Positions 19,154 through 58,858 of a DNA stretch of 64,000 nucleotides are shown one piece after another; positions within the stretch are counted from its first letter, which is position 1; each line of letters starts with the position of its first letter. The DNA lies in NCBI GenBank assembly GCA_964430885.1, contig CAYSHM010000004.1:64001-128000 (forward strand), given 5' to 3'. Origin of the DNA: an uncultured archaeon (GTDB taxonomy: Archaea; Thermoplasmatota; Penumbrarchaeia; JASLWR01). A program made the translations under genes and the position numbers. Under the pieces are notes generated by a model. The model did no database searches. It was not told where the DNA came from and saw nothing but the letters and a program-made list of their open reading frames with translations.

Positions 19154-22024
19154 TCAAAGAGGGGGCGGAGGGATGTTCCTGGGCGGATCATTAATTTTTT
19201 GATCCGGCTCAGTTGGTAATTTGGCTTTGGCGGTTCGCACTTCAAAATTCAGCTCTTCCATATTCTTGCTCATTTCTCCGTTATTATCTTCATTGGACAA
19301 CATACTATTTTCCGATTGGTCATACTGATAGGGCATGCCTTGGTTGTCCATGTTTGCTCCAGGATCTGGCAAGGTGTAATGATGCTGAGGCTTCAAGCTT
19401 CTTTTAATGCAGGTATCTCTTTCTGATTCCCCCACCCTCTCCATTTCCACATGCCCCTCAAGACTGCCGTTCGGTTTATCTTTTCTTTTTTTCATAAATA
19501 CCAGCAATATGATTGCCGTTATGATGATTATTATAATTATGATAATCAGGCTGACCAATCCGCTGCTAAATCCAGCCTTTTCCTTTTTTCCGTTTGGTTC
19601 CCCATCGCTCCTCGGTTTCTCATCACCCGCCACCGTATCATTATCGTCATCATCCTCCATTTGGACGACGGGTGCGATTACCGTTATGTTCTTTGTTGAG
19701 ATGCTATAAAGTCCGGCGGAATCGGAAACAGTAAGGGTGACAGTATAATTACCGCTTTGGGCGTATGTATGGTTGACCAATAGCCCTTCTTCGTCATTTT
19801 TTATTCCGTCCCTTGAATCAAAATCCCATGAATAGGTGAGCATATCGCCGTGGATCAGATCGGGATCCTGTGCATCCTCATTGGAGAAAGATACAGTTAG
19901 GTTTTCTTTTACGGTAGTATTACCCTGTGCATCTATAATCTTCACAGTAATGTTCCCTGAAACCGGAGGGTCGTTGACATTGATCACATTAATTGTAGTA
20001 TTGAACCAGTCAGCTCCATCATATTCGTCTTTTACGGAGAAGTTTACTCTATATGTGCCGATATCATCATTATCAGGTTTAAAGGTGAAGTTACCGGTTT
20101 CTTCATTCAGCGACCATTTATCAGAACTTATTCCATTTTGGCTGAAATTTGTTGCAAAAGTTAGTTTCTCGTAGGGGTCATGGGGAAGGTCAGGGTCAGC
20201 CGTTTTAAGGCTGAAATTCAGCCACTGTTTCTCTAAAACCTCCATTTCTTCCATTTCACTAATTATTGGTTCATCATTTGTGTTTACTATCGATATATTG
20301 AGGAAGTATGAACTTTGAAGTGCGTTCTGGGCCGACCCGTTCATGTCATTGATCATCAGGGAGAAGTTAATGTTTCCAATATGATGATCGTCAGGTTCGA
20401 TCGTCAGGTTTACTGCAAGGGGGTTATTGTTGTCAGGAAGCAGTTCAAGTATTTCGGAATATGAAAAATGGTCTTTCAGTGTTACAAGAGGGATATCCCC
20501 GTCTACATCACCTGCCAGGAATTTAAAGTAATTGATCTGTCCTTCCTTTGCTTCCAAATTGATGTCCGTTTGCTCTCCATCAATCTCAGTTCCGTTAATC
20601 GATAGGAAATGCGGAGGATCATTTGTGGGAATTACAGTGACCATAAATGGCTCTGTTCCGACCGATAATCCCTCTACATCTTCGGCTGATAACACAAAGA
20701 GAAGTTCTCCGAAATAGTCTTTTTCAGTTCTGAAATCCACATGCATAGTGGATAGATTTACCCCTGCTGTGATTTTCGATGTATTACCAGTTATATGAAA
20801 GGTTAGATTATCAAACGGTTCATCATCTCTGAAGTGATCCCGCAGGTCAATCAGGCCGATGCCTTGGTTGGAGTCCTCATGAAAACTATACATGCTGTTA
20901 TCGATATCAAGTATCAATTCAGGCGGTTGGTTGGGATAGATAACCTGATAATCAATGGATAGATTGTTTAATCTCAGTATTCCCGGTGAGTCAGCAAAGA
21001 GCGTTAGAGGAATATTTACAACCGCATCATCGGTATTGCTATTGACGCATTCCTGAAGTTTTTCTTTGAATGAATGCTGGTCGTTGATGGTTACCTTTTC
21101 GCGGTATTCCCCTTGATACTCCCATTCGGTATCCCCTGCATTGTTCACGTTCAGGGAAGGGTCCCAGGGATAGGAGGATATGTTGCCTCTGAACTCTACA
21201 TTGACAAAATCGGTCATGATCTCGGTGGTGCTTCCGTTGCCTGGGAGCGGTGTAGTAGCTATGAGATGTAATTTTTCATTGATGTCAAAAAACCTTTCGG
21301 GATTTGGATAGTATTCCCTTTCGAGTATTTTAATTGCTACAAATCCGCCCATGCTGAAGGTCTCTACCAGGTCCCAATCTGAAGTATCGTTGTTGTATAT
21401 GTAAATACTTCCGCAACATATACCTTGCCCATATGGGAAATTCCTAAATCCACTTCCTTTCCATTTGACTATTATTGAATCAAATTCCCAATCCACCTTA
21501 GAAAATGAAAAATGGTGGTAAACGAACTTGTTCATCTCACTGACTGATGAGAAAAGATCGTTGTTGTCGTCATTTATCTTCATATAATCCATGTTCCCGA
21601 AAGGAGTATCAGTATATTGCGATGGTTCATCTACGGGTATGGAATCGGAATTCCCCCACCAGGCTGAATTGTTGATAGTATCTGTAAAATTTCTGTTTTC
21701 GGAAATGCTCTCATTTAGAAATAATCCTTGGATGTCCATTGATGCGGATATTAATTCAGTATATTGCGGAAGATCAATGCTGGCCGAATGGTTATACCCA
21801 CCTTCAAGGAACTCGGAATCGATTGCTTCATTTCCGTTGCTGAATGTGTTCATTGTATGGCGCGTTCCGAGGACATCAATATTGTTCCAGTCATCCTTAT
21901 CAATATTGAAAATATCTTTTGATGATGAGGCGTGTTCAGTTAATATTCGGTTCAAACCCAATTGAGCGTTCATTGCGAGCAATGCAAATATCATCAATGT
22001 AATTATTAAAATCCTTTTTTTCAT
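19154..22024 (-). CDS. Single-pass surface protein with cadherin-like and PKD domains and a tail ending PPPPL (paralogue A)
   Basis: Signal peptide (ATG 22024; ORF open from 22033), NQPP/TNDPP/VNDPP cadherin-like junctions, LTYSWDF..HTY..GNYTVTLTVSD PKD, acidic linker, TM, KKRK. Confidence 0.85.
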   Translation of the reverse strand: MKKRILIITLMIFALLAMNAQLGLNRILTEHASSSKDIFNIDKDDWNNIDVLGTRHTMNTFSNGNEAIDSEFLEGGYNHSASIDLPQYTELISASMDIQGLFLNESISENRNFTDTINNSAWWGNSDSIPVDEPSQYTDTPFGNMDYMKINDDNNDLFSSVSEMNKFVYHHFSFSKVDWEFDSIIVKWKGSGFRNFPYGQGICCGSIYIYNNDTSDWDLVETFSMGGFVAIKILEREYYPNPERFFDINEKLHLIATTPLPGNGSTTEIMTDFVNVEFRGNISSYPWDPSLNVNNAGDTEWEYQGEYREKVTINDQHSFKEKLQECVNSNTDDAVVNIPLTLFADSPGILRLNNLSIDYQVIYPNQPPELILDIDNSMYSFHEDSNQGIGLIDLRDHFRDDEPFDNLTFHITGNTSKITAGVNLSTMHVDFRTEKDYFGELLFVLSAEDVEGLSVGTEPFMVTVIPTNDPPHFLSINGTEIDGEQTDINLEAKEGQINYFKFLAGDVDGDIPLVTLKDHFSYSEILELLPDNNNPLAVNLTIEPDDHHIGNINFSLMINDMNGSAQNALQSSYFLNISIVNTNDEPIISEMEEMEVLEKQWLNFSLKTADPDLPHDPYEKLTFATNFSQNGISSDKWSLNEETGNFTFKPDNDDIGTYRVNFSVKDEYDGADWFNTTINVINVNDPPVSGNITVKIIDAQGNTTVKENLTVSFSNEDAQDPDLIHGDMLTYSWDFDSRDGIKNDEEGLLVNHTYAQSGNYTVTLTVSDSAGLYSISTKNITVIAPVVQMEDDDDNDTVAGDEKPRSDGEPNGKKEKAGFSSGLVSLIIIIIIIIITAIILLVFMKKRKDKPNGSLEGHVEMERVGESERDTCIKRSLKPQHHYTLPDPGANMDNQGMPYQYDQSENSMLSNEDNNGEMSKNMEELNFEVRTAKAKLPTEPDQKINDPPRNIPPPPL

Positions 22025-22165: not shown

Positions 22166-25048
22166 TTATATTGGCGGAGGCGGGGGATAGTAAGGTTTTT
22201 CTTGAAGATTCTCATACTTGTGATTCTGGTGAGTTATGTATTTTGGCGCGGACTGTAGGGGATGCGGTGGTGCCAAGCTCTGCTCAGAAACTGAAGGCGA
22301 AATATCTTTATTTATCATATTTTGGTCATAGTAAGGATAATAAGCCTCGTTCTGGCGAATGTTGCTTTCAGGGTTGTTTTGGGTGGAATATGGATCATAT
22401 TCCTGCGGTTCATAATTCGGAAAGCGATCAAGTTCTTCTCCATCTTTATTTTCACCGCCTTCTGCCGGGATTATTTCTTCTTCACTAGCTCTCTTCCTTA
22501 CCTTTGCAATGAATCCAATGATCACAAGAACGGCAATAAGGATTATAATGGAAAAAATAATTAAAAGCCAAATTCCGGCACTCAGCCCTTTTTTTCCAAA
22601 CCCGCTTCCCCCAGTTTCATCATCCGGGCTATTGTCAATACCTGTATCATCGTTATCATTGTCATCCGGCAAGATGGGAGCAATCACTACAATATTGCCG
22701 GATGAAAGGTTGCTCATCCCATTTGAATCGATAACAATCAACGTTACTCCATAAGTGCCGCCTTCAGCATAGGTATGATTGACCTGCCGCCCCACCGCTT
22801 CTTTATCTATTCCATCCTTCGCATCGAAATCCCATGAATAGGTAAGAGTGTCGCCGTGTATCAGATCTGGATCTTGCCCTTCTTCAGTGGAAAACGATAT
22901 TGTTAGGTTTTCCTTTTCCGTTGTATTGCTCAGGGCGTCTTCAATAGTTACAATTATTTCCCCGGCAGTGGGGGGATCGTTAACATTCAGCACTTCGATA
23001 GTGGTATTGAACCAGTCCTTACCATCATATTGATCCTCCACGGAGAAATTGACAGTATATAGGCCTACATCATCATTGTCGGGTTTAAAGGAGAAATTAC
23101 CCGTTTGTCCATCCAATGACCATTTATCGGATCCTATGTTCCATTGGCTGAAATTTGTATGATAGATAAGCCTTTCAGAAATATCGCAGTCCGTATCTAT
23201 ATCATCCGCATCTAATGTGAAATTAAGCCATTGGTCCTCCAAAACATCCATCCCTTCCATTTCAATGATCACCGGAGCATCGTTAGTATTGGAAACTGAA
23301 ATATTTATTGTATATAATCTCATCATCGAGTTCTGAGCAGAACCGTTCACATCATTGATGCTGATGTTGAAAATGACTGAACCAATATTCTGGTCTTCAG
23401 GTTCAACTGCCAGCGAACCTACCAAAGAGTTGTTGTTATCCGATAGGAGATAAAGAATGTCTGAATATTGATAATGATCGTTCAAAGTCAGCAAAGGTAC
23501 ATCACCGTCAACATCTTCCGTCAGGAAAGGGTATGAATTGATCTTGCCTTCCATTGCTTCAATCTTAATTTCATTATCTTCAGGTCTGATTTCAATTCCG
23601 TTGAAAAAACTGAATGAAGGTGCATCGTTTGTTGGGGTGACACTCACCCAAAACGGATCCGTCTCGATATATAATCCTTCATTATCCTCGGCCTTGATCC
23701 TGAATCTTTCCTTTCCGAAATAGTTTTTATTGCTGACGAAGTCAATGCTATTGGTGCTAGTGTTGATGAAAGCAGAGATGCGGGTATGATTCATTGTAAC
23801 CGTAAAGGTAATGTTGTTGAAATCATCATCATCCTGGAAATAATCCTCAAGGTCTATCAGCCCGATTCCTTCATGGCTGTCTTCGGGAAAATTGAAGTTC
23901 TGGGAGTAGAAGGATCCCGTAAGCTCCGGCCTCTGGTTCTCAATAACGATATCGTATTGGATGGATAGTTCCCTCAATCCCATTATTCCAGGTTTATCGG
24001 AACTCAAGGATAAAGTAATATTGACGCTGTCACCTGAAGAATTGTCAACTAAGGACTGCAGCGTTTCCCTGAAACTGTAAGTATCATTTACATTGACAGT
24101 GGTATCGAACACTCCCTGGTGGTTCCATTCGACGTTTCCCTCCATATCCAGGTTCAGGGAACAATTTTCAGTATATGAATCAATATTATAGGTTGCTACG
24201 GCATTGGTAAAATCCGTTTTCATATAGGTTGTGAAACCGTTTCCGCCAACTCTTGTGACTGCCAAATAGTACATATTACCTGAATTATCAAGAATATTCG
24301 CCTGGTTGCATAGATATGTTCGGGATAGGGCTTTTTCATCAGGGACTTCACCCGTATGGAATTCGTCCACTAGTTCCCATAATCCGCTGCTGTGATCGTA
24401 AATCAACCATTTTACTCCGTTGGTTCCGAAACCCATATCTGGATTCCCCATTCCTCCTCCTTCCCAATTTGTTCGCATGGTCCAGATATTATTTGTACTG
24501 ATATTGGAAAAATGGAACATCTGGTAAGCATACTGATCGTCAATGTTTCCTGTGTTTGCTCTAAGATTATCCCTGTTCTGGAGGAGTATAAGCTGTGGCA
24601 GATTGTAGGAATTGTTCTCATAGGTGCCCGGAGGTGAATCAGGGAGGGAATGGATGCCGCCCCACCAGGCAGAATTATTAATGGTATCATTGTAGGAATA
24701 CTCCCTGTCAACCATGGATGTCAGGGGCAGTCCGTCAATTGTCATGCTTGCACTTGTAATCTCGATATTTGAGGGAAGTATTAACTTAACCGTATTGTTC
24801 GTGCCGCCTTCCATGAAGTATACTTCTTTGGTGATGGTACCGTCCTTGAATTGGGTAATTTCGCCTCTTGTCAATTCAGAATTTAGATCCGAAACAGTTT
24901 CGGAGGTTGGACCGTCTGAAAAAAAAATCCTGACAAGTATTCCATTTTGAAATGATATCATAAACACCAGAAGCAGTAACCCCAGTATACAGAATTTTTT
25001 TCCACTGCCATTTTTCACTTGAACACCTGAAAATTCTAATTTGTTCAT
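22166..25048 (-). CDS. Single-pass surface protein with cadherin-like and PKD domains and a tail ending PPPPPI (paralogue B)
   Basis: Co-linear with 19154-22024 (DTINNSAWWG, GIGLIDL, NGSAQN, DPDLIHGDxLTYSWDFD); TM then KVRKR. Confidence 0.85.
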   Translation of the reverse strand: MNKLEFSGVQVKNGSGKKFCILGLLLLVFMISFQNGILVRIFFSDGPTSETVSDLNSELTRGEITQFKDGTITKEVYFMEGGTNNTVKLILPSNIEITSASMTIDGLPLTSMVDREYSYNDTINNSAWWGGIHSLPDSPPGTYENNSYNLPQLILLQNRDNLRANTGNIDDQYAYQMFHFSNISTNNIWTMRTNWEGGGMGNPDMGFGTNGVKWLIYDHSSGLWELVDEFHTGEVPDEKALSRTYLCNQANILDNSGNMYYLAVTRVGGNGFTTYMKTDFTNAVATYNIDSYTENCSLNLDMEGNVEWNHQGVFDTTVNVNDTYSFRETLQSLVDNSSGDSVNITLSLSSDKPGIMGLRELSIQYDIVIENQRPELTGSFYSQNFNFPEDSHEGIGLIDLEDYFQDDDDFNNITFTVTMNHTRISAFINTSTNSIDFVSNKNYFGKERFRIKAEDNEGLYIETDPFWVSVTPTNDAPSFSFFNGIEIRPEDNEIKIEAMEGKINSYPFLTEDVDGDVPLLTLNDHYQYSDILYLLSDNNNSLVGSLAVEPEDQNIGSVIFNISINDVNGSAQNSMMRLYTINISVSNTNDAPVIIEMEGMDVLEDQWLNFTLDADDIDTDCDISERLIYHTNFSQWNIGSDKWSLDGQTGNFSFKPDNDDVGLYTVNFSVEDQYDGKDWFNTTIEVLNVNDPPTAGEIIVTIEDALSNTTEKENLTISFSTEEGQDPDLIHGDTLTYSWDFDAKDGIDKEAVGRQVNHTYAEGGTYGVTLIVIDSNGMSNLSSGNIVVIAPILPDDNDNDDTGIDNSPDDETGGSGFGKKGLSAGIWLLIIFSIIILIAVLVIIGFIAKVRKRASEEEIIPAEGGENKDGEELDRFPNYEPQEYDPYSTQNNPESNIRQNEAYYPYYDQNMINKDISPSVSEQSLAPPHPLQSAPKYITHQNHKYENLQEKPYYPPPPPI

Positions 25049-25600: not shown

Positions 25601-28537
25601 TTATTCGACCATTACCTCTTCGCCGCAGTTCTTGCAGGTTATATTGAAGGGTCTTTTATCTCCAGTATCGGGAATTATGCTTTGACATATGTGGCAGTAA
25701 ATTATCTCCTCTTCCTGGGGGTCTTTAGGCTTGATAATATCGTCCGCGGCCCCAACTATCTTGGGTTTAGGCACTTTCGGTGTTATCCGAGGATCCTTGC
25801 CTGATTCAGTATAGTGCCCGTCCCCCTCCATCAGGTCGGAATAATTCAGATTTCCTTCAATGTCATCAGCAAATAGCTGACTGAAATCAGGGGGTTCTAT
25901 CTCGGCCCCTAGCTGCCCATAGCTTCCCACGGAGCTACCCATTTGAGGTGGGGGGGGCATTACGTTCTGGGAAGGGCCTACGGGCATACCTTGGCCCGGC
26001 GGCGGCGGAATCTGCCCAGGAAAATTAGAAGGTGGGAATGGGGGCATTTCTCCCGGCGGTCTCGGAACTCTGCTGTCCACCATGAACGGATTAATTTCAT
26101 TATGTCCCATCATGTCCTGCTCCCCCGGCGGTCCAGGCGGCAGAGCCAGTCTTGGTGGCGGATAATCATAACCATCTGAAGGTGTATGAGCAGAATATGT
26201 CTGATAAGGGGAGATTCCCGGCGGAAGCAGTGGCTGACTGCCGGTGTAATTGGTCCCAGACATGTTAGCCGGAGGTAGTGCCAATGGAGGATTGCCGTAT
26301 CCAGCATATTGAGGCATTCCAGTTCCGATCATGTTCTGGAGGTAGTTTAATTGATGCTGAAGGCGCTGGACCTGAGTTTGCTCCTGAGCATATTGCCCGA
26401 GGCCAGCATCGATCCCCATAAGATCATCTTCGAAATCGTCTTCGTCATAGCTTGCGGTCTTGGATACCACCAGGAATATTATGCCGCCTAGAACCAGCAG
26501 TCCCAATAAACCTATAATCAGCCACAGCCACAGGGGCACTCCGTCGCTCTCACTTCCCTTCTCCTTAGGGGTTGCCGTTTCCTGTGCAATATTGCCTCCG
26601 CCGTTGGAATTACCAGTTATGGCCTTTATATCTTCGGCATCCAGGTCATCCCCGTCGACCTTGACATAGAGTTTTGCCTGTTCCTCCACTATCCAGCTGT
26701 AGGTTATTTCATCGGAATTGCCAGCGGACAGGTTTGCAATGTTCCAAAGCGATCCGACAATTTCATAGGGTTCAAAATCCTTGTTCCCACTCTTGTCATT
26801 GTATAGTATTATGTCGATATCTTCAGCTGAGGCATCACCGATGTTTGTCACTTGGACGGTGATGTCAGCTTTTTCCCCTTCGATTAGGGTGTCTTCTATG
26901 ATTATCTTGGCAGTTAATTTGGGGTATTTCTTTTCCATCATTTTTATTGTTACTTCTTTCTGGACAGTGTCCTTGCCGTCGAATACCTCTAGTACTATCT
27001 CATTGTCGCCGAGTTCGAGAGGATTGTTTTCTATGATGTAGACCTGCTCTTCTCCATCATAAAGGGTCTTGGACCCTGATCTCCATCGGTATATAAGAGT
27101 GTCAGTCAATTCATAGGGATCTGTATTATCCGGATCATATGTTCCCATGGCGCTGAGGACCAGGGGGTCCACATCATAAATGACCTGCCCATCAATGGGG
27201 TAGGCTATTGTCACAACAGGAGGGGTGTTAATGATTGTGGTTGAGATCTTACCTAATATTCCCTGGTGTATGCCGTCATGAGGAAGGACCCGTGCCTCCC
27301 ATTTCTGTCCTGCAATAAGTTCGGAACGGGGTATCTCATACTTGTCCTCGTATATTTTCATCTCCTCCCCGTTCCTGAACCAGGTGATGGAATATGATAC
27401 CTTATCCCCATCCTTGTCTTGGGACTCTTCAACTATTCCCAGGGTCAAATCGTCGTTTATTGTGGGGTCATCAGGTTTGATATCTAATTCCGGTTTTGTA
27501 GGCTGGTTGTTTACCACTTGAAGGGTCTGTTCAACATCATCCGACATCTCCCCATACTCATCGACCGCCATTATCTCGAGATAATAGTTCTTCACGCTTT
27601 TTCCATTGGAGTATGAAGTTGAATATGAAAGGGCATTATCCAAGGTATAGAAGCTCTTGGTAGTTTCGATGTCCAGTATGTCGGTTTTACCGGCTGAAGA
27701 ACCTATTGACAGGTAGTAGGTGATGGAATCACCATCTTCATCAGTTGAAGGGTACCAGGTTAACTGAGGGGATAGAGAATGCGTTGCTGTTGGAAGGATA
27801 TCCCGGGGGTTGGTAGGGGCATTGTTCTCTTCAATAGTTAGCTGGACAGATGAATCCTCGGTTATAGGTGACCATTGGTTCTTGTTATCCATGGCTCTGA
27901 AGACGATCTCATGATTTCCCGGGGACAGCTGGTCGTATGTGAAGCTCTTCTGCTCTGAAAAAATACCGTCCAGCGATGATTCCCACTGATATTTGACTAC
28001 GGAATCTCCATCACTGTCCTGCGCTTCACCCCTGAATTCGATATCCACCGAAGCTCTCTCTGTTCCGGATAGAGGTTTTACTATGTCCGTATCAGGCGGG
28101 AAATTGGTGGTGAACTTCCAATCGGAATAATCACCCCAACCATCTTCATCATGGGACTTGACAGCCCAGTAATAGGTAGTGGCCATGTCTATTGAGATCT
28201 CTAGACTGGTTCCGTCCACACTCCCATCAAATATATCTGCAGGTGCGGAATCGCTGTAAGCGGGACCCAGTGTGGATACTTTTACCCAGCTCTGATCAAT
28301 CTCCTTGTGGTCTCCCCGGTAATCTGGCTGCAGCCGCCACATAAGGGTGACGGTGTCCCCTACTATGCCCTTGGCATTATTCGAGGGATTAGGATTGGTA
28401 GGGGGGTCTGGTGGGTCTGTCGCCCGGCTGCCTGAATTCTTTTCGCTGAAAACGGAAATGCTGACGGCAAAACAAACCGCCAGGAGTGCAAGGACAACAA
28501 TGCCCGCTTTTACTTTGATAGTATCTCTTCTCTGCAT
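25601..28537 (-). CDS. Single-pass surface protein (FN3/PKD/Ig/CARDB) with a long Pro/Gly/Gln/Tyr-rich cytoplasmic tail and terminal Zn ribbon
   Basis: Signal peptide, TYYWAV FN3-like, YQWESSLDG..LSPGNHEI PKD-like, VQVTNIGDASA CARDB, TM, CHIC..CKNC. Confidence 0.85.
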   Translation of the reverse strand: MQRRDTIKVKAGIVVLALLAVCFAVSISVFSEKNSGSRATDPPDPPTNPNPSNNAKGIVGDTVTLMWRLQPDYRGDHKEIDQSWVKVSTLGPAYSDSAPADIFDGSVDGTSLEISIDMATTYYWAVKSHDEDGWGDYSDWKFTTNFPPDTDIVKPLSGTERASVDIEFRGEAQDSDGDSVVKYQWESSLDGIFSEQKSFTYDQLSPGNHEIVFRAMDNKNQWSPITEDSSVQLTIEENNAPTNPRDILPTATHSLSPQLTWYPSTDEDGDSITYYLSIGSSAGKTDILDIETTKSFYTLDNALSYSTSYSNGKSVKNYYLEIMAVDEYGEMSDDVEQTLQVVNNQPTKPELDIKPDDPTINDDLTLGIVEESQDKDGDKVSYSITWFRNGEEMKIYEDKYEIPRSELIAGQKWEARVLPHDGIHQGILGKISTTIINTPPVVTIAYPIDGQVIYDVDPLVLSAMGTYDPDNTDPYELTDTLIYRWRSGSKTLYDGEEQVYIIENNPLELGDNEIVLEVFDGKDTVQKEVTIKMMEKKYPKLTAKIIIEDTLIEGEKADITVQVTNIGDASAEDIDIILYNDKSGNKDFEPYEIVGSLWNIANLSAGNSDEITYSWIVEEQAKLYVKVDGDDLDAEDIKAITGNSNGGGNIAQETATPKEKGSESDGVPLWLWLIIGLLGLLVLGGIIFLVVSKTASYDEDDFEDDLMGIDAGLGQYAQEQTQVQRLQHQLNYLQNMIGTGMPQYAGYGNPPLALPPANMSGTNYTGSQPLLPPGISPYQTYSAHTPSDGYDYPPPRLALPPGPPGEQDMMGHNEINPFMVDSRVPRPPGEMPPFPPSNFPGQIPPPPGQGMPVGPSQNVMPPPPQMGSSVGSYGQLGAEIEPPDFSQLFADDIEGNLNYSDLMEGDGHYTESGKDPRITPKVPKPKIVGAADDIIKPKDPQEEEIIYCHICQSIIPDTGDKRPFNITCKNCGEEVMVE

Positions 28538-40341: not shown

Positions 40342-40938
40342 ATGGTCTGGGGTTTCAAAAAGGAGAATAATTTTTATAAAAGGGTAATGAAAAATATAAA
40401 AATGGTGAGAGAACAGGGTGAATCCCCTCGTGTGGATGTTACCTCTATTGACTCAATGGATCACTATTTATGTGACATATGCCAATCGTCCATAATCCGT
40501 TCAGACCTGATACAATGTTCCTTTTGCGGCAGATGGGTCTGCAGGTCAAAATGTCTAATAATGGAGAACGTAGCGTGTATGAACTGTTATGCAGTGATAA
40601 AACTAATGCGGGAATCCGATCAGCGCCAAAAGAATACAGCATCACGGAAGAGAATTCCGAAAAGGACAGTTATCAAGGATAAACACAATGCTCGTCTTCA
40701 GAAGAAACGGACGGATATTGAAAAGAAACGGCAGATAAAAGAACTGGAATTGGAAGAGAAAAGAATTGAATATGAGCACAAAAAACAGGTAGCGAAGCTG
40801 AAGAAAGAACTGGATGAAGTTAAATCGAATAAAAGCAGCAAATCTGGACCGCAATCTGATGAAATTGAGGGAAAAGGAGCAGATAAAGGAATATTATCGG
40901 CTTTGAAGAAAATTAAAAAAATGAAGGATGAAACCTAA
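40342..40938 (+). CDS. Cys8 zinc-finger plus coiled-coil protein
   Basis: CDIC-x11-CSFC-x4-C-x3-C-x7-CMNC followed by a K/E-rich coiled coil. Confidence 0.75.
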   Translation: MVWGFKKENNFYKRVMKNIKMVREQGESPRVDVTSIDSMDHYLCDICQSSIIRSDLIQCSFCGRWVCRSKCLIMENVACMNCYAVIKLMRESDQRQKNTASRKRIPKRTVIKDKHNARLQKKRTDIEKKRQIKELELEEKRIEYEHKKQVAKLKKELDEVKSNKSSKSGPQSDEIEGKGADKGILSALKKIKKMKDET

Positions 40939-45284: not shown

Positions 45285-45328
45285 GGGGGTAGTATTTGTT
45301 CTTATGAATTTACCTTTAAGGTGAGAAC

Positions 45329-48300
45329 ATGCTCTCTGAAAAACGAAAAAAATATTATTCGATACTATTTGTATTGATTCTGTCATCCATGGCCTTCGGT
45401 ATATTGGTTCCAGCGTCCTCCGCTGCTTCGGAAGATTCGGATTTCGATGGATTGTCAGATGATTATGAAAGATTAATTGGAACTGACCCATTCAATCCTG
45501 ATACCGATGCGGATGGTATGAACGACGCGGACGACCCCACTCCAAAAGGCGGTCTGTTGAACACCGAGGAAGTGTGGACCACCTGGAATATTACTGGCGA
45601 TATGAGTTTGCAGGTTATAGAACAGGGTCAATCCTTCAATGTTTCCTTCCACATATCTAAGTTCAATCCCGATGGGACCGAGGAAGTGCTGGAGAATCTG
45701 GATGCTTATCTATATGTGTATATCAGCAGAAGCTATTCCACCTATCTCAGACTGGATAAGATATCCATTCAGGCTACCATCGGACAGTACGAGCTCAGTT
45801 ACCGATCCAACGACCCTGGCAAATACCGCTTCATTCTGGGAGTGAACGCGAGCCAGATAACATTAGGAACCCATGCCACCTCTTTGGAGATGGATAAATT
45901 ATCCAGTGAGGGTAAGATAGGTTATATTCAGGGAGCGGCCTACCCCCCTTATCACACCACCGTTGCCAGCCTCTATCCCGTTCTCCTTCCAGGACATAAG
46001 GCGCACTACAATATCCAGCGGTACGAGTATGCCCCGCTAGATAATAGTTATTTATTCCTGAAAAGATTTGCCCAGCATTACTCCCCCACAGCGGCAGTCG
46101 GCTCTCTGTATGCCCCTTCAGCCGGAAGCGTCGTTGCTCATCTCTTCAAGGATTCATTGATAAGCAAACAGAATCTATGGGCCCCTGTAGGCGGTCTTGA
46201 GTACAATGTCACCCTCCTCCATCAAGGCGGGTATAATATGGCGGTTACAGCCTATGACACAGAGATAGCCTGGGACCACTTATATTCTCAAAAGTTCCCC
46301 TTTTCCACTGCATATACCTCCATAATTGATCCAGTCTATAGCTGGCTTGAGGTATCACCAGGTACACCAGAGGTATTTCAGAACGTCCAATTCATTGCCA
46401 ACAAATACACTGTAACCACTTCAATGAACGAATCGGCATTCAGCCATTGGTACAGGGGCGGGGGACTGAGGTTTATCATCGAGAATCACCCTGAACATGC
46501 TCAGCCTCATAACACCGATGTCTGGATATCCTTGTTCTATTATGTTTATGATCACTCGGCCAGGACAAGAATGGCCTATACCATGTTCGACAGGAATCTT
46601 ACGCTTAACGGTGATGCATCCACGTCCTTCCAATTAACCCTGCCGGGAACATATGCGGCAGCAGTGAAATATTCTCCAGTCCTCCCAGGCCACCCCCAGC
46701 AGAATTTCCCCCTTTACAGTCGATACGGCTACAAGATCAGGAATGACTATCACGATATCAGCTATTTCCAATGCATAGGGCCGGAATATGTAAATGTGTT
46801 CAAGGACGGGAATGTATATTTCACCCAGACGGGGATAAATGTATCAGTAACCGGCACCAGCAAAGGGAGCATGATGACAGGGCGTGATGCGGCGGTTTAT
46901 CTGGACGGAGTTTATAAAAATACCTTCACCTTCGCTGGAAATTCCAATGATCTGGACCTCGGACAGTTGGCAAAGGGAGCCCATGACGTCCATGTGCTCA
47001 CAATATATGATCAGGACACCAGAACAATAATCGAATCCCTGGGGCTTAGTAATTTCCATTACAACTGGATTGGTCACTGCAGGTTCGAGGTGAAATCCTT
47101 CCTCGTTCATGCCAACGCACCGTCCAACGTTATCAGGGAGCGGCAGGCAAATGTCAGCGTTCTAGTTTACGGATACGGGATGGAGCCTGTTAATAATGCC
47201 CAGGTGAAGATAGAAGCGGACGGCTATAATGCTCCAAGGATACAGGTTGGTCAGGGAACGACAGCAGTGGATGGTACTGCCAAGATAGGTGTGGTTATAC
47301 CTTCCAACGGAAGATATTATCATACTTTTCATATCACCGTGAGCAGGGGCGGGTTAACAGAATCTGTAACTTCCTATTTCTATGCTAGGAGCAGCGTGGC
47401 CAAGGGATTCATTCATACTAATAAACCCATTTATCTTCCAGGGGACGATATCAAGGCCCAGTTCTCAGTATATGATGTGGACGATGCGGCGCCGCATTCC
47501 GGTGAAGTGGAGCTCAGATTGACCTATAGAGGCAACAACAAAGATATCATCTCCGAGCAGGTTGTTCTGGATGAAATGGGGTCCGGGGAGATGGATTTCC
47601 CAATCAGCAGGGATGCACCTTGGGGGGATTATACCATTTCCGTCCTCAGTGACGGATCTGCAGTGGCATCTAGGACCATAGAGGTTCGATATTATGAAAC
47701 TCCCGATACCCGTATAGTTTTCGATGCGTCCCTGGATCTGAGGACCGGCGAGGTTGAGATCCCCGTCCAGGTGGAATATATGTTCGGTTCACCCGTGAAT
47801 CAGGGCAGCGTCCGCTATATCGTGGAGGGATATTCCAATACCTATGTCTATCCCCCTTACTATGGATATTGGTTCATGGACTGCGAGAGCGATGGAATAT
47901 CCGACTGTGCCCTCCCCTACTATGGATGGTACGATCCTGCACCTTTGTTCAAAGAAGATACTAACGTAAGTGTTCTGGGCGGCAGCGCCAATATCACCTT
48001 GAACATACCGAAAGGCGTTAAGCGGCTGTCCATAGCTGCCGAGTTCAGCGATGATTTTGACCATTATTCTGAGAATACCATTGAATATTTTGTCGGGGAA
48101 TCACCTGACCCCGAACTCAAAACAGGTTTAGAGCTCACCCCAGCAGAGAACACATTCACCGTTGGGGATGACATATCCTTCTCACTGCATACATATAATT
48201 ACAAGGATGCGGTCAATGAGGAGGCCGGGGACCTAGAGGAGGAATTTCAGGGTGATGTGAGCACATTCCTTCTTCTGAATGTCACTTCCATGAATGCAGA

Positions 48301-51300
48301 CAGCGCGGTAACCTATGAAGGTGTTTTTGATCTCTATACTGATCTGGAAGGATTGACGGTCTTTGACCTAGAGGAATTGGGATTGGACATTTACAACAAC
48401 TCGGTGAGTGGCAGATACTACTACAAGCTGACCCTTTCAGTGGTGGGCGAAAGCACCCCCCCCGCTACTTTGGAATACTCCTTTTTCATACATTGGGTGG
48501 AATACAGTATCATTTCCAGTCCCAATAGCTTCTCGCCGGGTGAGAACGCCACCATAACTTTGGAAGCCGAAAATAAACTTCATACACTGGATCCAGATTA
48601 TAACTATTCCCTGATCATAACCAAAAGGGATCGTTATTACGGATATTACAACTACTATTACAATTCATATTACGATCACGCACCGATATTCTCTCAGATG
48701 GGTGCAGCTTCAGGACGGAAGGAGATAACATGGCAGGTACCGGATCATATCCCCCAGGGTCTGTACATTGTTAGAGCTGAATTTTCCAATGACAATTACT
48801 CGGTTTCCATGGAGCACGAGGTTGAGATCGTTGATGTACCTCCGCTGAGCATTTCTCTTTCAGCTACTCCTTCCAGCTATTACCCTGGAGACCAGGTGGA
48901 TTTCAGTTTCACTCTCTCAGGGAATTTCAACGGATATGTCTATCTGTCCGTTGATGCGGGTAACGATCATCTTATGGAAAGCCGTATGACTGCAGGCAAT
49001 AACGGGGTATTTACCATTTCTACTTTGGACTGGCACAGTGATCTTTCCGGGACAGTTTATCTTATCGATCCAGATGGACGATTTATCAGCTCTAGCGTTT
49101 CGGTCAAATACGGCATTGATGTGCTTGATATATCTTTGGAGATGAATGCCAGCTCATATGAACCGGGAGACCAAGCCCAACTATCTGTTGAGGCCCTTAT
49201 GAGCGACGGTAGCCCTGCAGAGGGGGCTCATTTCTCACTCAGTATTGCGGATGCGGGAATATTTGAGATAGCGAATGATGCGTCAGCAGGTGATTTCTAT
49301 TCATCTCTGGTCACACCCTATGAGTTTGATTGGGGTTATAGATCTGTATTGAGCTGGTCCAGCGATACCTGGTATCCAGTGGGTTATACCAATATGACCA
49401 AGGGTTATTGGCCATATATCAATCCTGAAGAGCACCCCTGGGATGACGATTACGACGGCGACAGTGCAGGGGGCGGCCAGGGTATGCAGGGAGGGGCCAA
49501 TGACGGAATACCTGAAGGCGATATGGGGGAACAGGCACCCCAGGATGCAGAGCTGAACAACGACCTTCAGGAGCAGCTTGATAATACCGATGTTAGAGAA
49601 TGGTTCACGGATCTGGCCCTATGGCTTCCGGCGGTGATATTGGATGGGAATGGCATGGCATCCATAAATTTCACCCTGCCGGACAATATCTGCAAATGGC
49701 GGGTGAGGGGCACCGGCAGGACCCATGGACTTATCGGGGGTGAATCAGTCATAGAATTCAATGTATCCAAGGATTTCTTTATAGAGCCCAAGCTGCCCTA
49801 CAAGGTTACACAGGATGACGAATTGGAGTTTGACGTTCTCATCTACAACTTCAACAAAAATTCGGTCAATGCCCGGCTTGGAATATCTGCAGGGGAATGG
49901 CTGGGTGTGTTCGGACAGGTTGAGGTTAACATCACCGCCCCTCCAGACACCATTGAGACCCACACATACAAAGTAAAGATATTCGGATCAATGACCAACA
50001 ATCTTACCATTATATGCAGCGATATGGGTGCAAATACTGATGCAGTGAAGAAGGAAATGTTCGTAAAACCCAATGGAGCGCTTTATACCTCTCATCTTAC
50101 AGGAGCGGTAGATCCGCTTTCAGAGGAGATATTGGCCTTCAAGGACGAACTGATCAATGGTTCCCAGAAGGTCATACTGCGCCTGGCACCTGGTTACGGG
50201 GGCCTTCTGAAGATGGGCTATTCCATGCTGTCAGGTTATCCCTATGACTGCACCGAGCAGATCACTTCCCGTTTGGTGCCTGCAGTTATTTTCAGGGAAT
50301 ATCTGAGGGCGACTGGCGGATTGAACTGGTATAACGACCGCCATCTGAAAAGGCGGATCTATACCGAACTGCAGTCTCTGCTTTCTAAGCAGCATCAGGA
50401 TGGAGGATGGGGATGGTGGAAGGGGGATCAAAGTGCACAGTGGATAAGCGGCTGGGTACTTCTTGGTCTGACCCTTACAAGGGATTCAGGGATCCTTGTA
50501 GATAATGCGGTCATTCAAGGGGCTCAGAGTTATCTTATGAACTTCCTTGCAGGTGAAGACCATTGGGAGCCTGGATTGGGTGATGATATGAACGGCCGTG
50601 AACTAACATCCTTCCTGTATTACGCACTTGTGAAATCAGGAGTTCAGGTACTGGCCAGAGTTGAAGATTACCTCTTAGCAGAATATTCCGGTGGAAATCT
50701 TACCTCATATGGTCTTTCATTCTATGGTCTTGCTCTGGAGGAAAAAGATGATTTCTACGGGGATGTATTAACTGCTCTCCTCTCCTCAAAAATTGCTTCC
50801 CATTACCAGAGCAATGAGGCTCTAGGAGGTCATATGGAAACCACAGGATGGGCCCTTCTGCTCCTCGCCAATGATGACACTGAAAAGGCCGAGATGAGGG
50901 AAGCGTTGGAATGGCTGAACTCCCGCCGGCTGCCCAATGGCGACTGGGGCACCACAACAGCCACTACCGCTTCCATGTTGGCAATACTTGAGATGGTCAA
51001 GAATGCCGATCCCACTGATATGGATGTGACCGTCAAGGTCAATGGTCGCCAGATTGCCGCTGAACATGTGGATGAGAGGGCGAACAGGGATTTCTACAAT
51101 CGACTGGATGCTTTGGATATTACATCATATATCCGGGTGAGCGAGCCTAACACTATCACTATTGAAAAACAGGGGAGCGGTGATCTGTTCTACGAACTCA
51201 CCTCGGTGGAATATCTGCGAAAACGTGTCTCCGTGGATTTCACCCAGCATTATACCGTATCAATCGGGTCCACTTTAGACGTTGAGATAACCGCAGACCC

Positions 51301-52720
51301 AGTAAACAGTAACACTCTCAAGGCGGAGGATGTGAATGTCAGATGTTTTACTGGCGACGGCCTCCTCCTTTTATCCGCAAACATCACTGAACCTGCAGAT
51401 CAGGATTCCCCCACTACCTTTTCCTACAAGTATCTGGCCAACAGGATCGGTAAGGCATTCATCTCCCCCGTCATATTATCATACAGACTGAACGCCGGCC
51501 AGAGGTCCAGCGGCCAAATAACCAAGTATTACGGTCCAATTGAGGTCAATATCACCGATTCACCGGCCCGCAGGAGCGGTGTTTACCCTGACGGAATTGT
51601 CCGCAGCGGACCAGGTAAGTTCAATCCAGTACTTACCAAAACCATCACTCCGCAAGTGGTGCGTGCAGGTGAGGAGGCTCAGGTGACATTGAAGCTGGAG
51701 ATGGACTCAATGGCTGCAATAGATGCCTTTACAGAGGATGCGGATCTGTACATACTGGATGAACTTGACGATGATTTCATAATAAGCAATGTCGGACAGT
51801 ATATTACAGGTGATGAAATATTGAAATTCCCCGTGGATATCAATACAAATGAGCAATCATTCAGCTATAAGATCACTTGTCAGGAGTCTCACTCCAAACC
51901 TTTAGGGTCTGCAGTTCTCTACAATGAACATCTTGCGCTATGCAGTTCAGATTCGCCTGAATTCAAGGTCATGGACGGAGCTTCCGGACTTATCAGAAGA
52001 TTCTCAGAATTGGTATCTGAGGTTAACAATGCGGTGGAGATCCACATAGCGGCCTGGTCAGAGGACGCTCTTGGAAATATTGCTCTAGAGGATTACCTCC
52101 CGCCGGGATTTGAGGTTGATGAAACCTCAGTTGAATCCATGGTGGCCAGCAGTGAACATGTCAGTTCCTACGAATTAACCTCTGAAGGAGTGGTATTCTT
52201 CCTATATTCTTCGGATTCGGAGGTTGAATTCAGCTACAAGGCAGTGCCTACAATTCCCGGGAGGATGGTGGCACCCTGCGCTATAATGTATCCTATGTAT
52301 TCACCTTTGGATACAGTAGAATCAGAGTCATATCTGTTGACAGTGGTCCCTGAGGGATCGGAATGGGCAGTGGAATATATTCCCATGGAGGACGGTCAGA
52401 ATTCACTGGTGAACAACTCCGACGGAACTGATCCGGCAGATCCAGATCCAGCGGACAATTCCACCGATAAAGATGACGATACGCCTCAGAACCCAAATGA
52501 AACTCCAGGTGTGTCAGTCCCAATCAGCGGCCCCGACGGTCCCGGGGACGGTACTGGGGATAACGTCCAGGAGCCACCGGAGGATGTGAATGATCCAGGT
52601 AACGGCCGCGGTGATGGGGAAGAGGCGGGGCCGCTTCTGGGCTTTATTATCATGGGTGCCTTGTTTTTGGTACTGGCAGTTTTGATGATAATAAAATATA
52701 AAAGTAAAAAGCGCAGGTAG
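45329..52720 (+). CDS. Alpha-2-macroglobulin / thioester-containing protein, C-terminally membrane anchored
   Basis: HTNKPIYLPGD (MG2), YMFGSPV, LSIADAGI, VREWFTDLALW, LPDNICKWRV, GYPYDCTEQ thioester, QHQDGGWGWW, WGTTTAT; signal peptide; TM + KYKSKKRR. Confidence 0.9.
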   Translation: MLSEKRKKYYSILFVLILSSMAFGILVPASSAASEDSDFDGLSDDYERLIGTDPFNPDTDADGMNDADDPTPKGGLLNTEEVWTTWNITGDMSLQVIEQGQSFNVSFHISKFNPDGTEEVLENLDAYLYVYISRSYSTYLRLDKISIQATIGQYELSYRSNDPGKYRFILGVNASQITLGTHATSLEMDKLSSEGKIGYIQGAAYPPYHTTVASLYPVLLPGHKAHYNIQRYEYAPLDNSYLFLKRFAQHYSPTAAVGSLYAPSAGSVVAHLFKDSLISKQNLWAPVGGLEYNVTLLHQGGYNMAVTAYDTEIAWDHLYSQKFPFSTAYTSIIDPVYSWLEVSPGTPEVFQNVQFIANKYTVTTSMNESAFSHWYRGGGLRFIIENHPEHAQPHNTDVWISLFYYVYDHSARTRMAYTMFDRNLTLNGDASTSFQLTLPGTYAAAVKYSPVLPGHPQQNFPLYSRYGYKIRNDYHDISYFQCIGPEYVNVFKDGNVYFTQTGINVSVTGTSKGSMMTGRDAAVYLDGVYKNTFTFAGNSNDLDLGQLAKGAHDVHVLTIYDQDTRTIIESLGLSNFHYNWIGHCRFEVKSFLVHANAPSNVIRERQANVSVLVYGYGMEPVNNAQVKIEADGYNAPRIQVGQGTTAVDGTAKIGVVIPSNGRYYHTFHITVSRGGLTESVTSYFYARSSVAKGFIHTNKPIYLPGDDIKAQFSVYDVDDAAPHSGEVELRLTYRGNNKDIISEQVVLDEMGSGEMDFPISRDAPWGDYTISVLSDGSAVASRTIEVRYYETPDTRIVFDASLDLRTGEVEIPVQVEYMFGSPVNQGSVRYIVEGYSNTYVYPPYYGYWFMDCESDGISDCALPYYGWYDPAPLFKEDTNVSVLGGSANITLNIPKGVKRLSIAAEFSDDFDHYSENTIEYFVGESPDPELKTGLELTPAENTFTVGDDISFSLHTYNYKDAVNEEAGDLEEEFQGDVSTFLLLNVTSMNADSAVTYEGVFDLYTDLEGLTVFDLEELGLDIYNNSVSGRYYYKLTLSVVGESTPPATLEYSFFIHWVEYSIISSPNSFSPGENATITLEAENKLHTLDPDYNYSLIITKRDRYYGYYNYYYNSYYDHAPIFSQMGAASGRKEITWQVPDHIPQGLYIVRAEFSNDNYSVSMEHEVEIVDVPPLSISLSATPSSYYPGDQVDFSFTLSGNFNGYVYLSVDAGNDHLMESRMTAGNNGVFTISTLDWHSDLSGTVYLIDPDGRFISSSVSVKYGIDVLDISLEMNASSYEPGDQAQLSVEALMSDGSPAEGAHFSLSIADAGIFEIANDASAGDFYSSLVTPYEFDWGYRSVLSWSSDTWYPVGYTNMTKGYWPYINPEEHPWDDDYDGDSAGGGQGMQGGANDGIPEGDMGEQAPQDAELNNDLQEQLDNTDVREWFTDLALWLPAVILDGNGMASINFTLPDNICKWRVRGTGRTHGLIGGESVIEFNVSKDFFIEPKLPYKVTQDDELEFDVLIYNFNKNSVNARLGISAGEWLGVFGQVEVNITAPPDTIETHTYKVKIFGSMTNNLTIICSDMGANTDAVKKEMFVKPNGALYTSHLTGAVDPLSEEILAFKDELINGSQKVILRLAPGYGGLLKMGYSMLSGYPYDCTEQITSRLVPAVIFREYLRATGGLNWYNDRHLKRRIYTELQSLLSKQHQDGGWGWWKGDQSAQWISGWVLLGLTLTRDSGILVDNAVIQGAQSYLMNFLAGEDHWEPGLGDDMNGRELTSFLYYALVKSGVQVLARVEDYLLAEYSGGNLTSYGLSFYGLALEEKDDFYGDVLTALLSSKIASHYQSNEALGGHMETTGWALLLLANDDTEKAEMREALEWLNSRRLPNGDWGTTTATTASMLAILEMVKNADPTDMDVTVKVNGRQIAAEHVDERANRDFYNRLDALDITSYIRVSEPNTITIEKQGSGDLFYELTSVEYLRKRVSVDFTQHYTVSIGSTLDVEITADPVNSNTLKAEDVNVRCFTGDGLLLLSANITEPADQDSPTTFSYKYLANRIGKAFISPVILSYRLNAGQRSSGQITKYYGPIEVNITDSPARRSGVYPDGIVRSGPGKFNPVLTKTITPQVVRAGEEAQVTLKLEMDSMAAIDAFTEDADLYILDELDDDFIISNVGQYITGDEILKFPVDINTNEQSFSYKITCQESHSKPLGSAVLYNEHLALCSSDSPEFKVMDGASGLIRRFSELVSEVNNAVEIHIAAWSEDALGNIALEDYLPPGFEVDETSVESMVASSEHVSSYELTSEGVVFFLYSSDSEVEFSYKAVPTIPGRMVAPCAIMYPMYSPLDTVESESYLLTVVPEGSEWAVEYIPMEDGQNSLVNNSDGTDPADPDPADNSTDKDDDTPQNPNETPGVSVPISGPDGPGDGTGDNVQEPPEDVNDPGNGRGDGEEAGPLLGFIIMGALFLVLAVLMIIKYKSKKRR

Positions 52721-57900: not shown

Positions 57901-58858
57901 TGTACTGATGAAATTAAGGGTCAGTGACGGACAATACACTTCAGATTGTTATGTTCATCTGGAGCCAGTTCCTCTAAATGATCTTCCGGTTCTGAATATT
58001 AAGTCCTTATCTGAAAAGGCTGATGGCAATCTCAGCTTGAAACTGGAATTTACCGACAGCGACACGGCGGCGACGGATATGAGATTTAATATTAGCGTGG
58101 ACAGGGAAAGCAATCTAAATGTACCCTTACTGGAATTCATACCGGTTTCTGAGAATTCCTACCGGACCTCAATGACGCTGGTAATTGATCATCTGACGCT
58201 CACACCGGGCAATCATACCCTTTGGGTGGAGATTTGGGATTCAGAGGATACGTGGTCTGAAGCTATGGCTTTGTTCTTGGTACCTGAACCCCAAGGAGGC
58301 GAGAACGGCGACGATGATGATGACAACAATGTATCTGATGATGACAATGACGATACAGGCGGTTCGGACGACAATAGTGGAATAAACGAAGAATCGGAAA
58401 AACCATTCTACTCCGAGCCTGTGAACCTTATAGTTGCAGGGATCGTTGTAATCCTGATAATTGGCAGTATAGCTCTTGCCCTGGCCCTTCGGAGAAAGAA
58501 GAGTAAGAAGGAGGTTAAGGGCGGTCCATCAGGTGAAGGAAGTATGGATGACATTTATGGCGCTTACTTGGATGAAATGGCTTTTGGGGAAGACGAGGAA
58601 ATCGAGGATGAGGGTTATGATGATGACAGGATTATCCATGAATCTTTGGGTCATTCTGGAATCAAGGTGAAAGAAGATGACCTGGATATGTATCCACCTG
58701 ATGATGAAGATGATCTAATCTTGGAATCTCAAGTTGAGACAGAGGGCATTATGGTTGCATCTGAGCATAGTTCCGATGCGAGTTCACCCGACGAGGAGGT
58801 AGGGATGGAGGATGTAGAGGATGAAAAAAGCTCGAAAATACCGCCCCCTCCCAAATAG
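54998..58858 (+). CDS. TIGR03790-family surface protein with an inserted CBM-like domain, CARDB, cadherin-like repeats, TM and an acidic tail ending PPPPK
   Basis: KGVPLRI, ASVDSELAL, NPYYG, YLVTRL, GYSSWGSND, FLPGAIAETFVSTGGRS, QSLVADL, EPYLSA, VIGDP; ETDESNN CARDB. Confidence 0.85.
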   Translation: MFRISDIFSPLKQLVFPLLSVFLLLTILFQPFVDAGFKFDPQVTQPSHSLDFARIECVSSYEEDKTREDHSHLLNYDDVVLIVNDNSQMSRDVADYFVANRNFPVNNIINITAPTGETVNRNQFNDFREQIEENITDRNLTLKINYIITTKGVPLRISGGANQRASVDSELALILNSNQNYIGNNGWMINPYYGQFKPFTSKKYDMYLVTRLTAYTFDEIKAIIDNAANSLNVTGEFVLDVDPGRDGSPGYKIGNDWLRSANHTLSNMGMDTYFDTTNTFVNNRTGVMGYSSWGSNDGHWFKNLVSNSNMETDGNGDDIPDSWYPVEQANSSVNRSDEDSYRNTYSVKLARQNSGDGEVSLYQDFYVEPDRRYYLSGYANLSGVSSDGYARLRIKAVDSHGDVLWNKYGTQRRGTTNEWKSMGQLIYEPIPGVVRLELGCTLFKSSGTAYFDYVRLNEIRPHMEFLPGAIAETFVSTGGRSMTYGTAYGQSLVADLLREGVTGVKGYTWEPYLSAISHPDKLLPWYASGYDLASSFWAGSQFIGWMGTVIGDPKCAPYYYSRPDLEVTSLELSHAEPSQHEDLQINITLTNSGFGDADSTFSITLWNDSIGGEDLDTRFHSLSAGGNLALTFKIEATQMNGTNRFVLEVDRGNNILETDESNNIELIELYVNERPKAVSQFPHVEVLEDSFNNSLDLTDMYFSDREGDLLHFRVEPHGISDYILNRLNYSIEEGYLNISVYDNMTIQDIVFRIYCDDRYPVGNDIFLDLYVSVLPINDPPFLWKTPLPIVLNEGGIIESQQLKERDIFRDIDSDDLYYAIRIMEMEEISGISPEEVNITLKVNDDIKVISPGDYYGNITLRTFCWDERFNLSALSMNDTGPYTWIDLVINIQPINDAPKFEEEDVYVFIPEDAYKYPTLNLSSVCHDIDNDFDSLKWDISDIVPQGKAEANIEDGRLLVTLPLNYTDGVLMKLRVSDGQYTSDCYVHLEPVPLNDLPVLNIKSLSEKADGNLSLKLEFTDSDTAATDMRFNISVDRESNLNVPLLEFIPVSENSYRTSMTLVIDHLTLTPGNHTLWVEIWDSEDTWSEAMALFLVPEPQGGENGDDDDDNNVSDDDNDDTGGSDDNSGINEESEKPFYSEPVNLIVAGIVVILIIGSIALALALRRKKSKKEVKGGPSGEGSMDDIYGAYLDEMAFGEDEEIEDEGYDDDRIIHESLGHSGIKVKEDDLDMYPPDDEDDLILESQVETEGIMVASEHSSDASSPDEEVGMEDVEDEKSSKIPPPPK

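Follow-up and report, generated by a model that had tools for sequence, protein, structure and literature searches.

Eukaryotic cells are characteristically organised through docking motifs that lie in disordered cytoplasmic tails and are read by modular adaptors; to our knowledge, such motifs are hardly documented in archaea outside the Asgard group. Class I SH3 ligands follow the pattern +xxPxxP, the 'FP4' motif recognized by Ena/VASP EVH1 domains reads [F/L/W/Y]PPPP, and profilin binds polyproline. At the C-terminus of eukaryotic type-I membrane proteins, KKxx-COOH is read by the beta-propellers of COPI, and in PGF-CTERM/archaeosortase signals a motif precedes a terminal membrane helix, which is then removed by cleavage. 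Polyproline binding by an Asgard (Heimdallarchaeial) profilin is reported (PMC8410842). Here we describe a polyproline ending, or tag, in which a run of at least four prolines stops 0–2 residues from the C-terminus of large surface proteins. It was found in a 64,000-nucleotide (nt) stretch of DNA from an uncultured archaeon of the Thermoplasmatota (the window; positions 64,001 to 128,000 of contig CAYSHM010000004.1, assembly GCA_964430885.1) and then across the genome to which the window belongs (G000). Surface proteins whose ectodomains differ have this ending in common on their cytoplasmic tails, and it is a non-random motif at the level of the protein.

Three proteins of the window bear the tag. 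P0001 (19154..22033, minus strand; 959 amino acids (aa)) ends ...PPRNIPPPPL, its tandem paralogue P0002 (22166..25048, minus strand; 960 aa) ends ...KPYYPPPPPI, and P0003 (54998..58858, plus strand; 1286 aa) ends ...KSSKIPPPPK. A sequence-only reading of the window had reported the three endings as RNIPPPPL, PYYPPPPPI and SKIPPPPK, each followed directly by the stop codon, and all three open reading frame (ORF) translations agree. Each protein has an N-terminal hydrophobic segment, one strong hydrophobic helix, K/R and then a hydrophilic tail of 112, 116 or 124 aa. In P0001 the helix lies at nt 19493-19549, the tail at nt 19157-19492 and PPPP at nt 19160-19171, followed by L and stop; in P0002 the helix lies at nt 22517-22573, the tail at nt 22169-22516 and PPPPP at nt 22172-22186, followed by I and stop; in P0003 the helix lies at nt 58427-58483, the tail at nt 58484-58855 and PPPP at nt 58841-58852, followed by K and stop. 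P0003 exceeds the NCBIfam cut-off for TIGR03790 (181.7 bits versus 67) and also contains a CARDB domain; as had been proposed, its ectodomain differs from those of the other two, which are of PKD/Big_9 type, and it is unrelated to them. The description of the receptors as unrelated does not extend to the P0001/P0002 pair itself, the ectodomains of which share 45% identity over 827 aa in an alignment that stops before the helix.

Running the regular expression P{4,}.{0,2}$ over 5381 G000 ORFs of at least 80 aa returned 17 matches. Two of these (88 and 125 aa) look spurious; the other 15 are 892-1923 aa long, all have one strong helix 111-293 aa before the C-terminus that is followed by K/R, and 11 also have an N-terminal hydrophobic segment. 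For a background, a crude non-overlapping set of 2032 G000 genes was divided into 183 that encode type-I proteins with a tail (one internal helix, at least 200 aa before it and at least 40 aa after it) and 1849 others. The 183, about 9% of the set, are large surface proteins that cross the membrane once; their cytoplasmic tails measure 40-628 aa and have a median net charge of about -12. The ending is present on 15 of the 183, or about one in twelve, and on none of the 1849 others (Fisher p = 1e-16), which bears out the enrichment in type-I membrane proteins that the sequence-only reading had proposed as a check. NxS/T sequons occur at 2.13 per 100 aa in ectodomains versus 0.42 in tails, and this contrast, together with the K/R that follows the helix, places the tails inside the cell. 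The 15 tagged proteins comprise four paralogue pairs (60, 45, 34 and 26% identity) and seven singletons, encoded by genes spread over 12 contigs. The ending is kept in all four pairs; for three, the alignable sequence does not reach the membrane helix. Ectodomains of the carriers are of Reelin-B (Reelin subrepeat B), PKD, FG-GAP/ASPIC plus PKD, Kelch, transglutaminase/Big_7 and TIGR03790/CARDB type, and some have no Pfam match at all.

The tag exceeds chance in position as well as in number. Runs of four or more prolines (P4+) occur 47 times in the 30,823 tail residues of G000, versus once in 196,787 ectodomain residues and seven times in 716,438 residues of proteins outside the type-I set. 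Fifteen of the 47 tail runs stop 0-2 residues from the C-terminus, whereas tail rotation, which preserves runs and so tests position alone, yielded a mean of 0.96 and a maximum of 5 terminal runs in 5000 trials; shuffling gave a mean of 0.12. A relaxed ending (PP.P or P.PP within the last 7 residues) is found on 28 of 183 tails versus 2 of 1541 other proteins of at least 150 aa, and proline is most frequent 2-5 positions from the tail end, at 14-17% versus 8.3% over whole tails. The proline codons of the tagged ends are mixed (CCT 25, CCG 20, CCC 14, CCA 11) and the DNA 3' of the stop codons is unrelated among tagged genes; these two observations rule out a DNA-level repeat or homopolymer artefact and indicate selection at the level of the protein.

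G000 comprises 3.13 Mb in 44 contigs with a G+C content of 43.5% and a completeness of 91.6%, and the window holds archaeal markers that include a geranylgeranyl reductase, DUF2070, Mre11/Rad50-like genes, an FtsZ and a ribosomal cluster. A search with an alignment of P0011, a soluble window protein discussed below, matched two named records and gave 'Thermoplasmatota archaeon ETNP2_MAG_1', JASLWR01, as the sole named relative; JASLWR01 is ranked as an order of Thermoplasmatota in a preprint (10.1101/2025.11.08.687404). Three other genomes of the same family (G001, G002 and G003) and three from other families of the class (G005, G008 and G012, the last a single complete contig) were sampled with the DNA pattern CCNx4-NNN-TRA and the loci were read in frame, which covers the form with one residue after the run (x = 1) and TAA or TGA stops. 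Long type-I ORFs with the motif ending were found at 6 of 16 loci read in G003 (29 matches in total; one of the six ORFs has several helices), at 3 of 14 in G001, along with one 101-aa frame, and at 2 of 19 in G002 (51 matches in total), with endings that include MPPPPPV, EPPLPPPPE, [F/Y]PPPPY and APPPPPPPE. For this x = 1, TAA/TGA form, no motif ending was seen at any of 11 loci in G012, 15 loci read of 36 in G005 or 15 of 32 in G008. A looser DNA pattern (CCN x4, N{0,6}, TRA) applied to 31 relatives returned noise, with 101 matches in G000 against 104 in the control. In a sample of G003 drawn without motif bias (796 kb, 510 crude genes, 54 type-I tails), the ending is on 4 of the 54 tails versus 0 of 456 other proteins, and 4 of 11 tail P4 runs are terminal. 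As far as tested, the motif is limited to one family of the order JASLWR01.

Two groups of proteins hold the ending strictly or nearly so. The Reelin-B receptor G000:C41:100-5871 has seven full-length homologues other than itself (36-42% identity); all end [A/S]PPPPPP(P)E, whereas their tails upstream of the ending diverge. The second group is that of P0012 (6862..9717, plus strand; 951 aa), a soluble 'helical-rod' protein composed of a zinc ribbon, helical repeats and a second zinc ribbon. The G000 copy ends IPNFEE and lacks the tag, but six database homologues (45-47% identity) end SPPPPVE, SPPPPAE, NPPPPVE, SPPPPVE, SPPPPME and LPPPME, that is, PPPPxE in five and PPPxE in one, and all three family orthologues read from DNA end PPPP-x-E; in this protein family the tag stands about 5 residues after the folded zinc ribbon. 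The helical-rod protein had been put forward as a candidate reader of the tag; in relatives it turns out to be a carrier. That a soluble protein family bears the tag counts against a purely membrane-insertion role. Full-length P0012 orthologues were found in the same family only, and an ESM Atlas search with P0012 returned only sub-threshold matches (0.85-0.86) to Thermoplasmatota zinc-ribbon clusters. In the window an NfeD/SPFH (Band 7) pair lies directly upstream of P0012 (5097-6706, plus strand); no such pair stands within 1.5 kb of P0012 in G001-G003.

The residues around the runs show what is shared beyond the prolines. The position before the run (-1) is L, I, V, M, F, Y or W in 10 of 15 terminal and 19 of 32 internal runs, against a background of 22%, and is hydrophobic or S/T in all 15 terminal and 26 of 32 internal runs (background 34%). 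K or R stands at -5 to -2 in 11 of 15 terminal and 18 of 32 internal runs (expected 40%), and D or E is scarcer than expected in this interval (66% expected, against 4 of 15 and 11 of 32), despite the acidity of the tails. Terminal examples are KKRPL-PPPPP, NRRL-PPPPPK and KKPL-PPPPK; internal ones are KKRKPL-PPPP and RPKRLL-PPPP. The window holds internal copies in P0004 (25601..28537, minus strand; 978 aa), a type-I receptor whose 287-aa tail has two PPPP runs, QIPPPPG (nt 25997-26008) and VMPPPPQ (nt 25946-25957), and a C-terminal zinc ribbon (CxxC at nt 25685-25696 and nt 25625-25636). Terminal and internal copies have their flanks in common, and the consensus is roughly [KR]-x(0-3)-[L/I/M/F/Y/S/T]-P-P-P-P with a preference for the free C-terminus, on tails that are long, acidic and probably disordered. 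To judge from residue composition, these flanks look like those of a proline-recognition ligand: the PxxP core with a flanking basic residue that typifies SH3 ligands is present, with K/R at -5 to -2 in 29 of 47 runs and a hydrophobic residue at -1 in 29 of 47.

Other explanations of the run can be weighed against these features. In bacteria and eukaryotes, ribosomes are known to stall on polyproline and to terminate slowly after proline, and PPPP before a stop codon could slow elongation or termination in an aIF5A-dependent manner, timing a late step of membrane-protein biogenesis or lowering expression. The near-confinement of P4 runs to membrane proteins in G000 fits such a translational device, but at 111-293 aa upstream the helix is too distant for force-coupled arrest, the stop codons of the 15 tagged genes show no clear bias (TAA 7, TGA 7, TAG 1), internal copies have the same flanks and a soluble protein family is tagged as well; we regard it as scarcely probable. 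Charge points to a second option, in which no adaptor takes part and basic polyproline-II ends contact neighbouring acidic tails or the membrane, forming a loose sub-membrane layer. The tails have a median net charge of about -11 to -12, whereas the last 15 residues have a median of +1 in tagged tails versus -2 in others, and the basic enrichment and acidic depletion beside the run point the same way. Yet the conserved Reelin-B and P0012 forms end in E without basic flanks (APPPPPPE, SPPPPVE), and charge alone needs no four prolines, so that this physical role appears very unlikely.

A protective end-cap would explain the terminal preference most directly. Many carboxypeptidases stop at proline, and, without any specific partner, a rigid polyproline end might keep carboxypeptidases or unfoldase/protease machines off long disordered tails. 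The excess of runs at the very end over rotation is as a cap would predict, as are the 0-2 residues of any kind that follow the run, as if their identity were irrelevant; among other tails, 30 of the 183, P0004 included, have a folded zinc ribbon as their end and some an acidic stretch, either of which might serve as an alternative cap. Nevertheless, a cap has no need of the 32 of 47 copies that are internal with the same flanks, and the tag of the P0012 family, so close behind its folded ribbon, has no long disordered end to shield. Because an end-cap also leaves the basic and hydrophobic flank preferences unexplained, we consider it unlikely.

We favour, at about even chances, the reading that the ending is a short linear docking motif for a cytoplasmic partner, common to many surface proteins and, in sister genera, to the soluble rod. 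A cytoplasmic protein would bind the polyproline stretch at the tail end and so hold many unrelated surface proteins to a single partner inside the cell, whether to anchor them, cluster them or turn them over; in sister genera it would bind the soluble zinc-ribbon rod protein as well. The sorting or clustering signal that the sequence-only reading had suggested would be one use of such a motif.

Several observations weigh against the docking motif. Gene calls, type-I calls and tail limits all come from a crude ORF filter and a hydropathy rule instead of a trained predictor. The tagged proteins of the window are not conserved in their endings: none of 22 TIGR03790-type homologues of P0003 in 20 relatives has the tag, including same-family orthologues of 49% and 47% identity, and it is absent from all four homologues of P0001 (the PKD pair), of which two end in a zinc ribbon, as does the best G003 match of P0001. 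The FG-GAP/PKD pair fares no better, with the ending on none of six complete orthologue C-termini, and C9:48160, which ends TPPPPP in G000, has two G002 orthologues that end only APPPQV and APPST. The 0-2 residues that follow the run are variable, which makes a fixed pocket for the terminal carboxylate improbable. No neighbour gene recurs beside the 15 tagged genes, and an operon-encoded adaptor was rejected on that ground.

The search for a reader within G000 also tells against a docking motif. In a six-frame profile search of G000 with models of profilin, SH3_2, WH1/EVH1, WW, GYF, GYF_2 and MIT, none scored above its cut-off, and the canonical SH3/WW/GYF/EVH1/profilin-type adaptor that had been suggested as reader thus found no counterpart in this genome. 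Profilin (PF00235) and WH1/EVH1 (PF00568) had no match at E <= 1, and GYF_2 (PF14237) none at all; GYF (PF02213) reached 14 bits at best (cut-off 25.7). For SH3, searched with the PF07653 model and not with PF00018 or PF14604, the best match scored 12.8 bits (cut-off 21.8); one weak SH3 match was a 135-aa ORF with a sequence that does not appear SH3-like. WW (PF00397) gave at best 14.6 bits (cut-off 26.9), in a 47-aa frame; WW ligands read PPxY or PPLP, and the endings FPPPPY and YPPPPY occur in G003. MIT (PF04212), as in the MIT-MIM2 system with its proline-rich ESCRT-III tail motif, peaked at 15.1 bits (cut-off 30); the weak MIT matches look by sequence like TPR or other helical-repeat proteins, with no Vps4-like ATPase among them. 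Pfam models run on 19 giant soluble G000 proteins found no proline-binding domain. A literature search, with subscription journals outside its coverage, returned nothing on such tails in Thermoplasmatota.

Across carriers the picture is mixed. Conservation in orthologues, on which the sequence-only reading had staked part of its case, fails for P0001-P0003 but holds for the Reelin-B receptor (7/7) and the P0012 family (5/6). Elsewhere the ending shifts in form: C2:155626 has SPPPE in G000 versus MPPPPPV in its G001 and G003 orthologues, and C12:32707 has LPPPPPLPPL versus EPPLPPPPE. The six FG-GAP/PKD-pair orthologues end in a basic stretch, RKKVVRKVVKKK, onto which the G000 lineage seems to have added PLPPPPK or TPPPPP. 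Judging by the orthologue endings, the motif is evidently old in two families, and in at least three, among them those of P0003, P0001 and the FG-GAP/PKD pair, it is newly gained. One way to produce such a record is evolutionary by-product, whereby a zinc ribbon is lost by truncation and a proline-rich linker is left as a functionless end. Zinc-ribbon and proline ends do switch in three orthologue pairs (P0001, C34:18449 and C18:51385), and the P0001 homologues P0008 and P0009 have proline-rich stretches immediately before the ribbon. Random truncation, however, would not place 15 stops 0-2 residues after a P4 run, given the rotation maximum, and some tails carry both a ribbon and a terminal tag (L056, L073 and L082). 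The conservation in the Reelin-B and P0012 families shows selection and excludes a by-product there; for the ending as a whole we accord it only a slight probability. Under the docking reading, turnover around a few strictly conserved carriers would be the pattern expected of short linear motifs with a standing reader.

One window protein has an architecture that invites comparison with known readers. P0011 (34069..36795, plus strand; 908 aa) is a soluble protein whose beta-propeller is N-terminal; after it come a PE-repeat linker, helical repeats over about 400 aa and a double zinc ribbon. The sequence-only reading had counted two further receptors with internal proline motifs and zinc fingers. 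P0004 fits that description; P0011 is the sole other window protein found with both features, and it has no membrane helix and hence is no receptor. Eukaryotic coat proteins likewise have a beta-propeller followed by helical repeats. Full-length P0011 orthologues (41-42% identity) were found within the family but not outside it; G005 and G008 gave weaker look-alikes, and in G012 no counterpart turned up. A related-locus search with the single P0011 sequence returned no matches. P0011 may tentatively be put forward as a candidate reader of the tag. The family-only orthologues of P0011 and P0012 lend little support, because the same pattern is expected of many other genes.

On the boldest interpretation, this order of wall-less-type archaea would run a eukaryote-like 'tail code' plugged into a family-specific sub-membrane scaffold, in effect a cortical skeleton, or a layer akin to a coat, that arose outside the Asgard archaea and the eukaryotes. 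Its signals, on roughly half of the 183 receptor tails, would be hydrophobic-PPPP, acidic-Trp, FKI[DE]x and a zinc-ribbon knob, and its scaffold parts would be P0011, with an architecture recalling coat proteins, and the P0012 rod, PPPPxE-tagged in sister genera. We consider this quite unlikely. More generally, the ending is a statistically clean case, replicated in a second genus, and its many natural 'clients' and clear gain and loss events make the search for a reader tractable. A reader, if found, would reveal the link between the cell interior and the very large, variable surface proteome in an abundant, uncultured lineage of marine archaea.

Other endings recur among the same tails. A second shared ending, [DE]x[MLF]F[KN]I[DES]x-COOH, is present on 5 of 183 type-I tails versus 0 of 1541 other proteins (...DDMFKIDL, ...DNMFKIDI, ...EELFKIDF, ...DQEFKIEM and ...GDVFNISLD), with loci at 59046-63653 (plus strand) in the window and at G000:C4:127888-132414 just past it. 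An acidic stretch with Trp in the last six residues occurs on 23 of 183 type-I tails versus 31 of 1541 other proteins (...DDDDDWW, ...EEDWD and ...DDWDI; loci G000:C12:73154-79123 and C10:9436-15963) and resembles eukaryotic acidic-Trp motifs. Near several tail ends an acidic-hydrophobic piece recurs (LDDIMDxI, EDVMMEIAG, DDLMASATVG), and two G000 tails end PPRPP[KR]Q. The window also encodes an alpha-2-macroglobulin-like protein of 2463 aa (A2M, TED, MG2 and bait region; 45329-52720, plus strand), a transglutaminase/TSP3-repeat type-I protein of 2352 aa (12051-19109, plus strand) and a prokaryotic RING-finger protein (Prok-RING_2; 40342-40938, plus strand). A further RING-finger protein, with Prok-RING_1 and zf-RING_2, is encoded at G000:C3:150346-152889, two genes from a PPPP-tagged receptor. 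Several soluble G000 giants (1647-3278 aa) are without a Pfam match. Two large enzymes seem unusual for an archaeon, namely a single-chain acetyl-CoA carboxylase of 2114 aa with an ACC_central region (G000:C39:1702-8046) and a polyketide/fatty-acid-synthase-like protein of 3047 aa with the order KS-AT-ACP-KR-DH (G000:C5:108864-118007).

The ending can be set beside described systems. The Asgard profilin is the only archaeal polyproline-reading system that our literature search found (PMC8410842). It belongs to a different phylum, its family (PF00235) was not found in G000, and no link to surface-protein tails is described in the accessible portion of that report. PGF-CTERM/archaeosortase signals are likewise lineage-specific C-terminal signatures on many surface proteins, but the motif here comes after the helix, at the end of a hydrophilic tail of 111-293 aa inside the cell, and thus does not qualify as an archaeosortase signal. 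With KKxx-COOH the ending shares the position of a free C-terminal cytoplasmic motif common to unrelated type-I proteins, and a likeness to COPI may extend to the family-specific beta-propeller plus helical-repeat protein P0011, as a candidate only; the residues are prolines instead of lysines, and no endomembrane system is known to us in this lineage. Compared with eukaryotic proline recognition by SH3, EVH1 and profilin, the ending differs in its preference for the extreme C-terminus and in its host, a non-Asgard archaeon in whose genome SH3, WH1 and profilin were not detected, but it has the same polyproline core, with a hydrophobic residue before it and basic residues upstream, and the proteome likewise holds several copies of it, within disordered stretches on the cytoplasmic side of membrane proteins.

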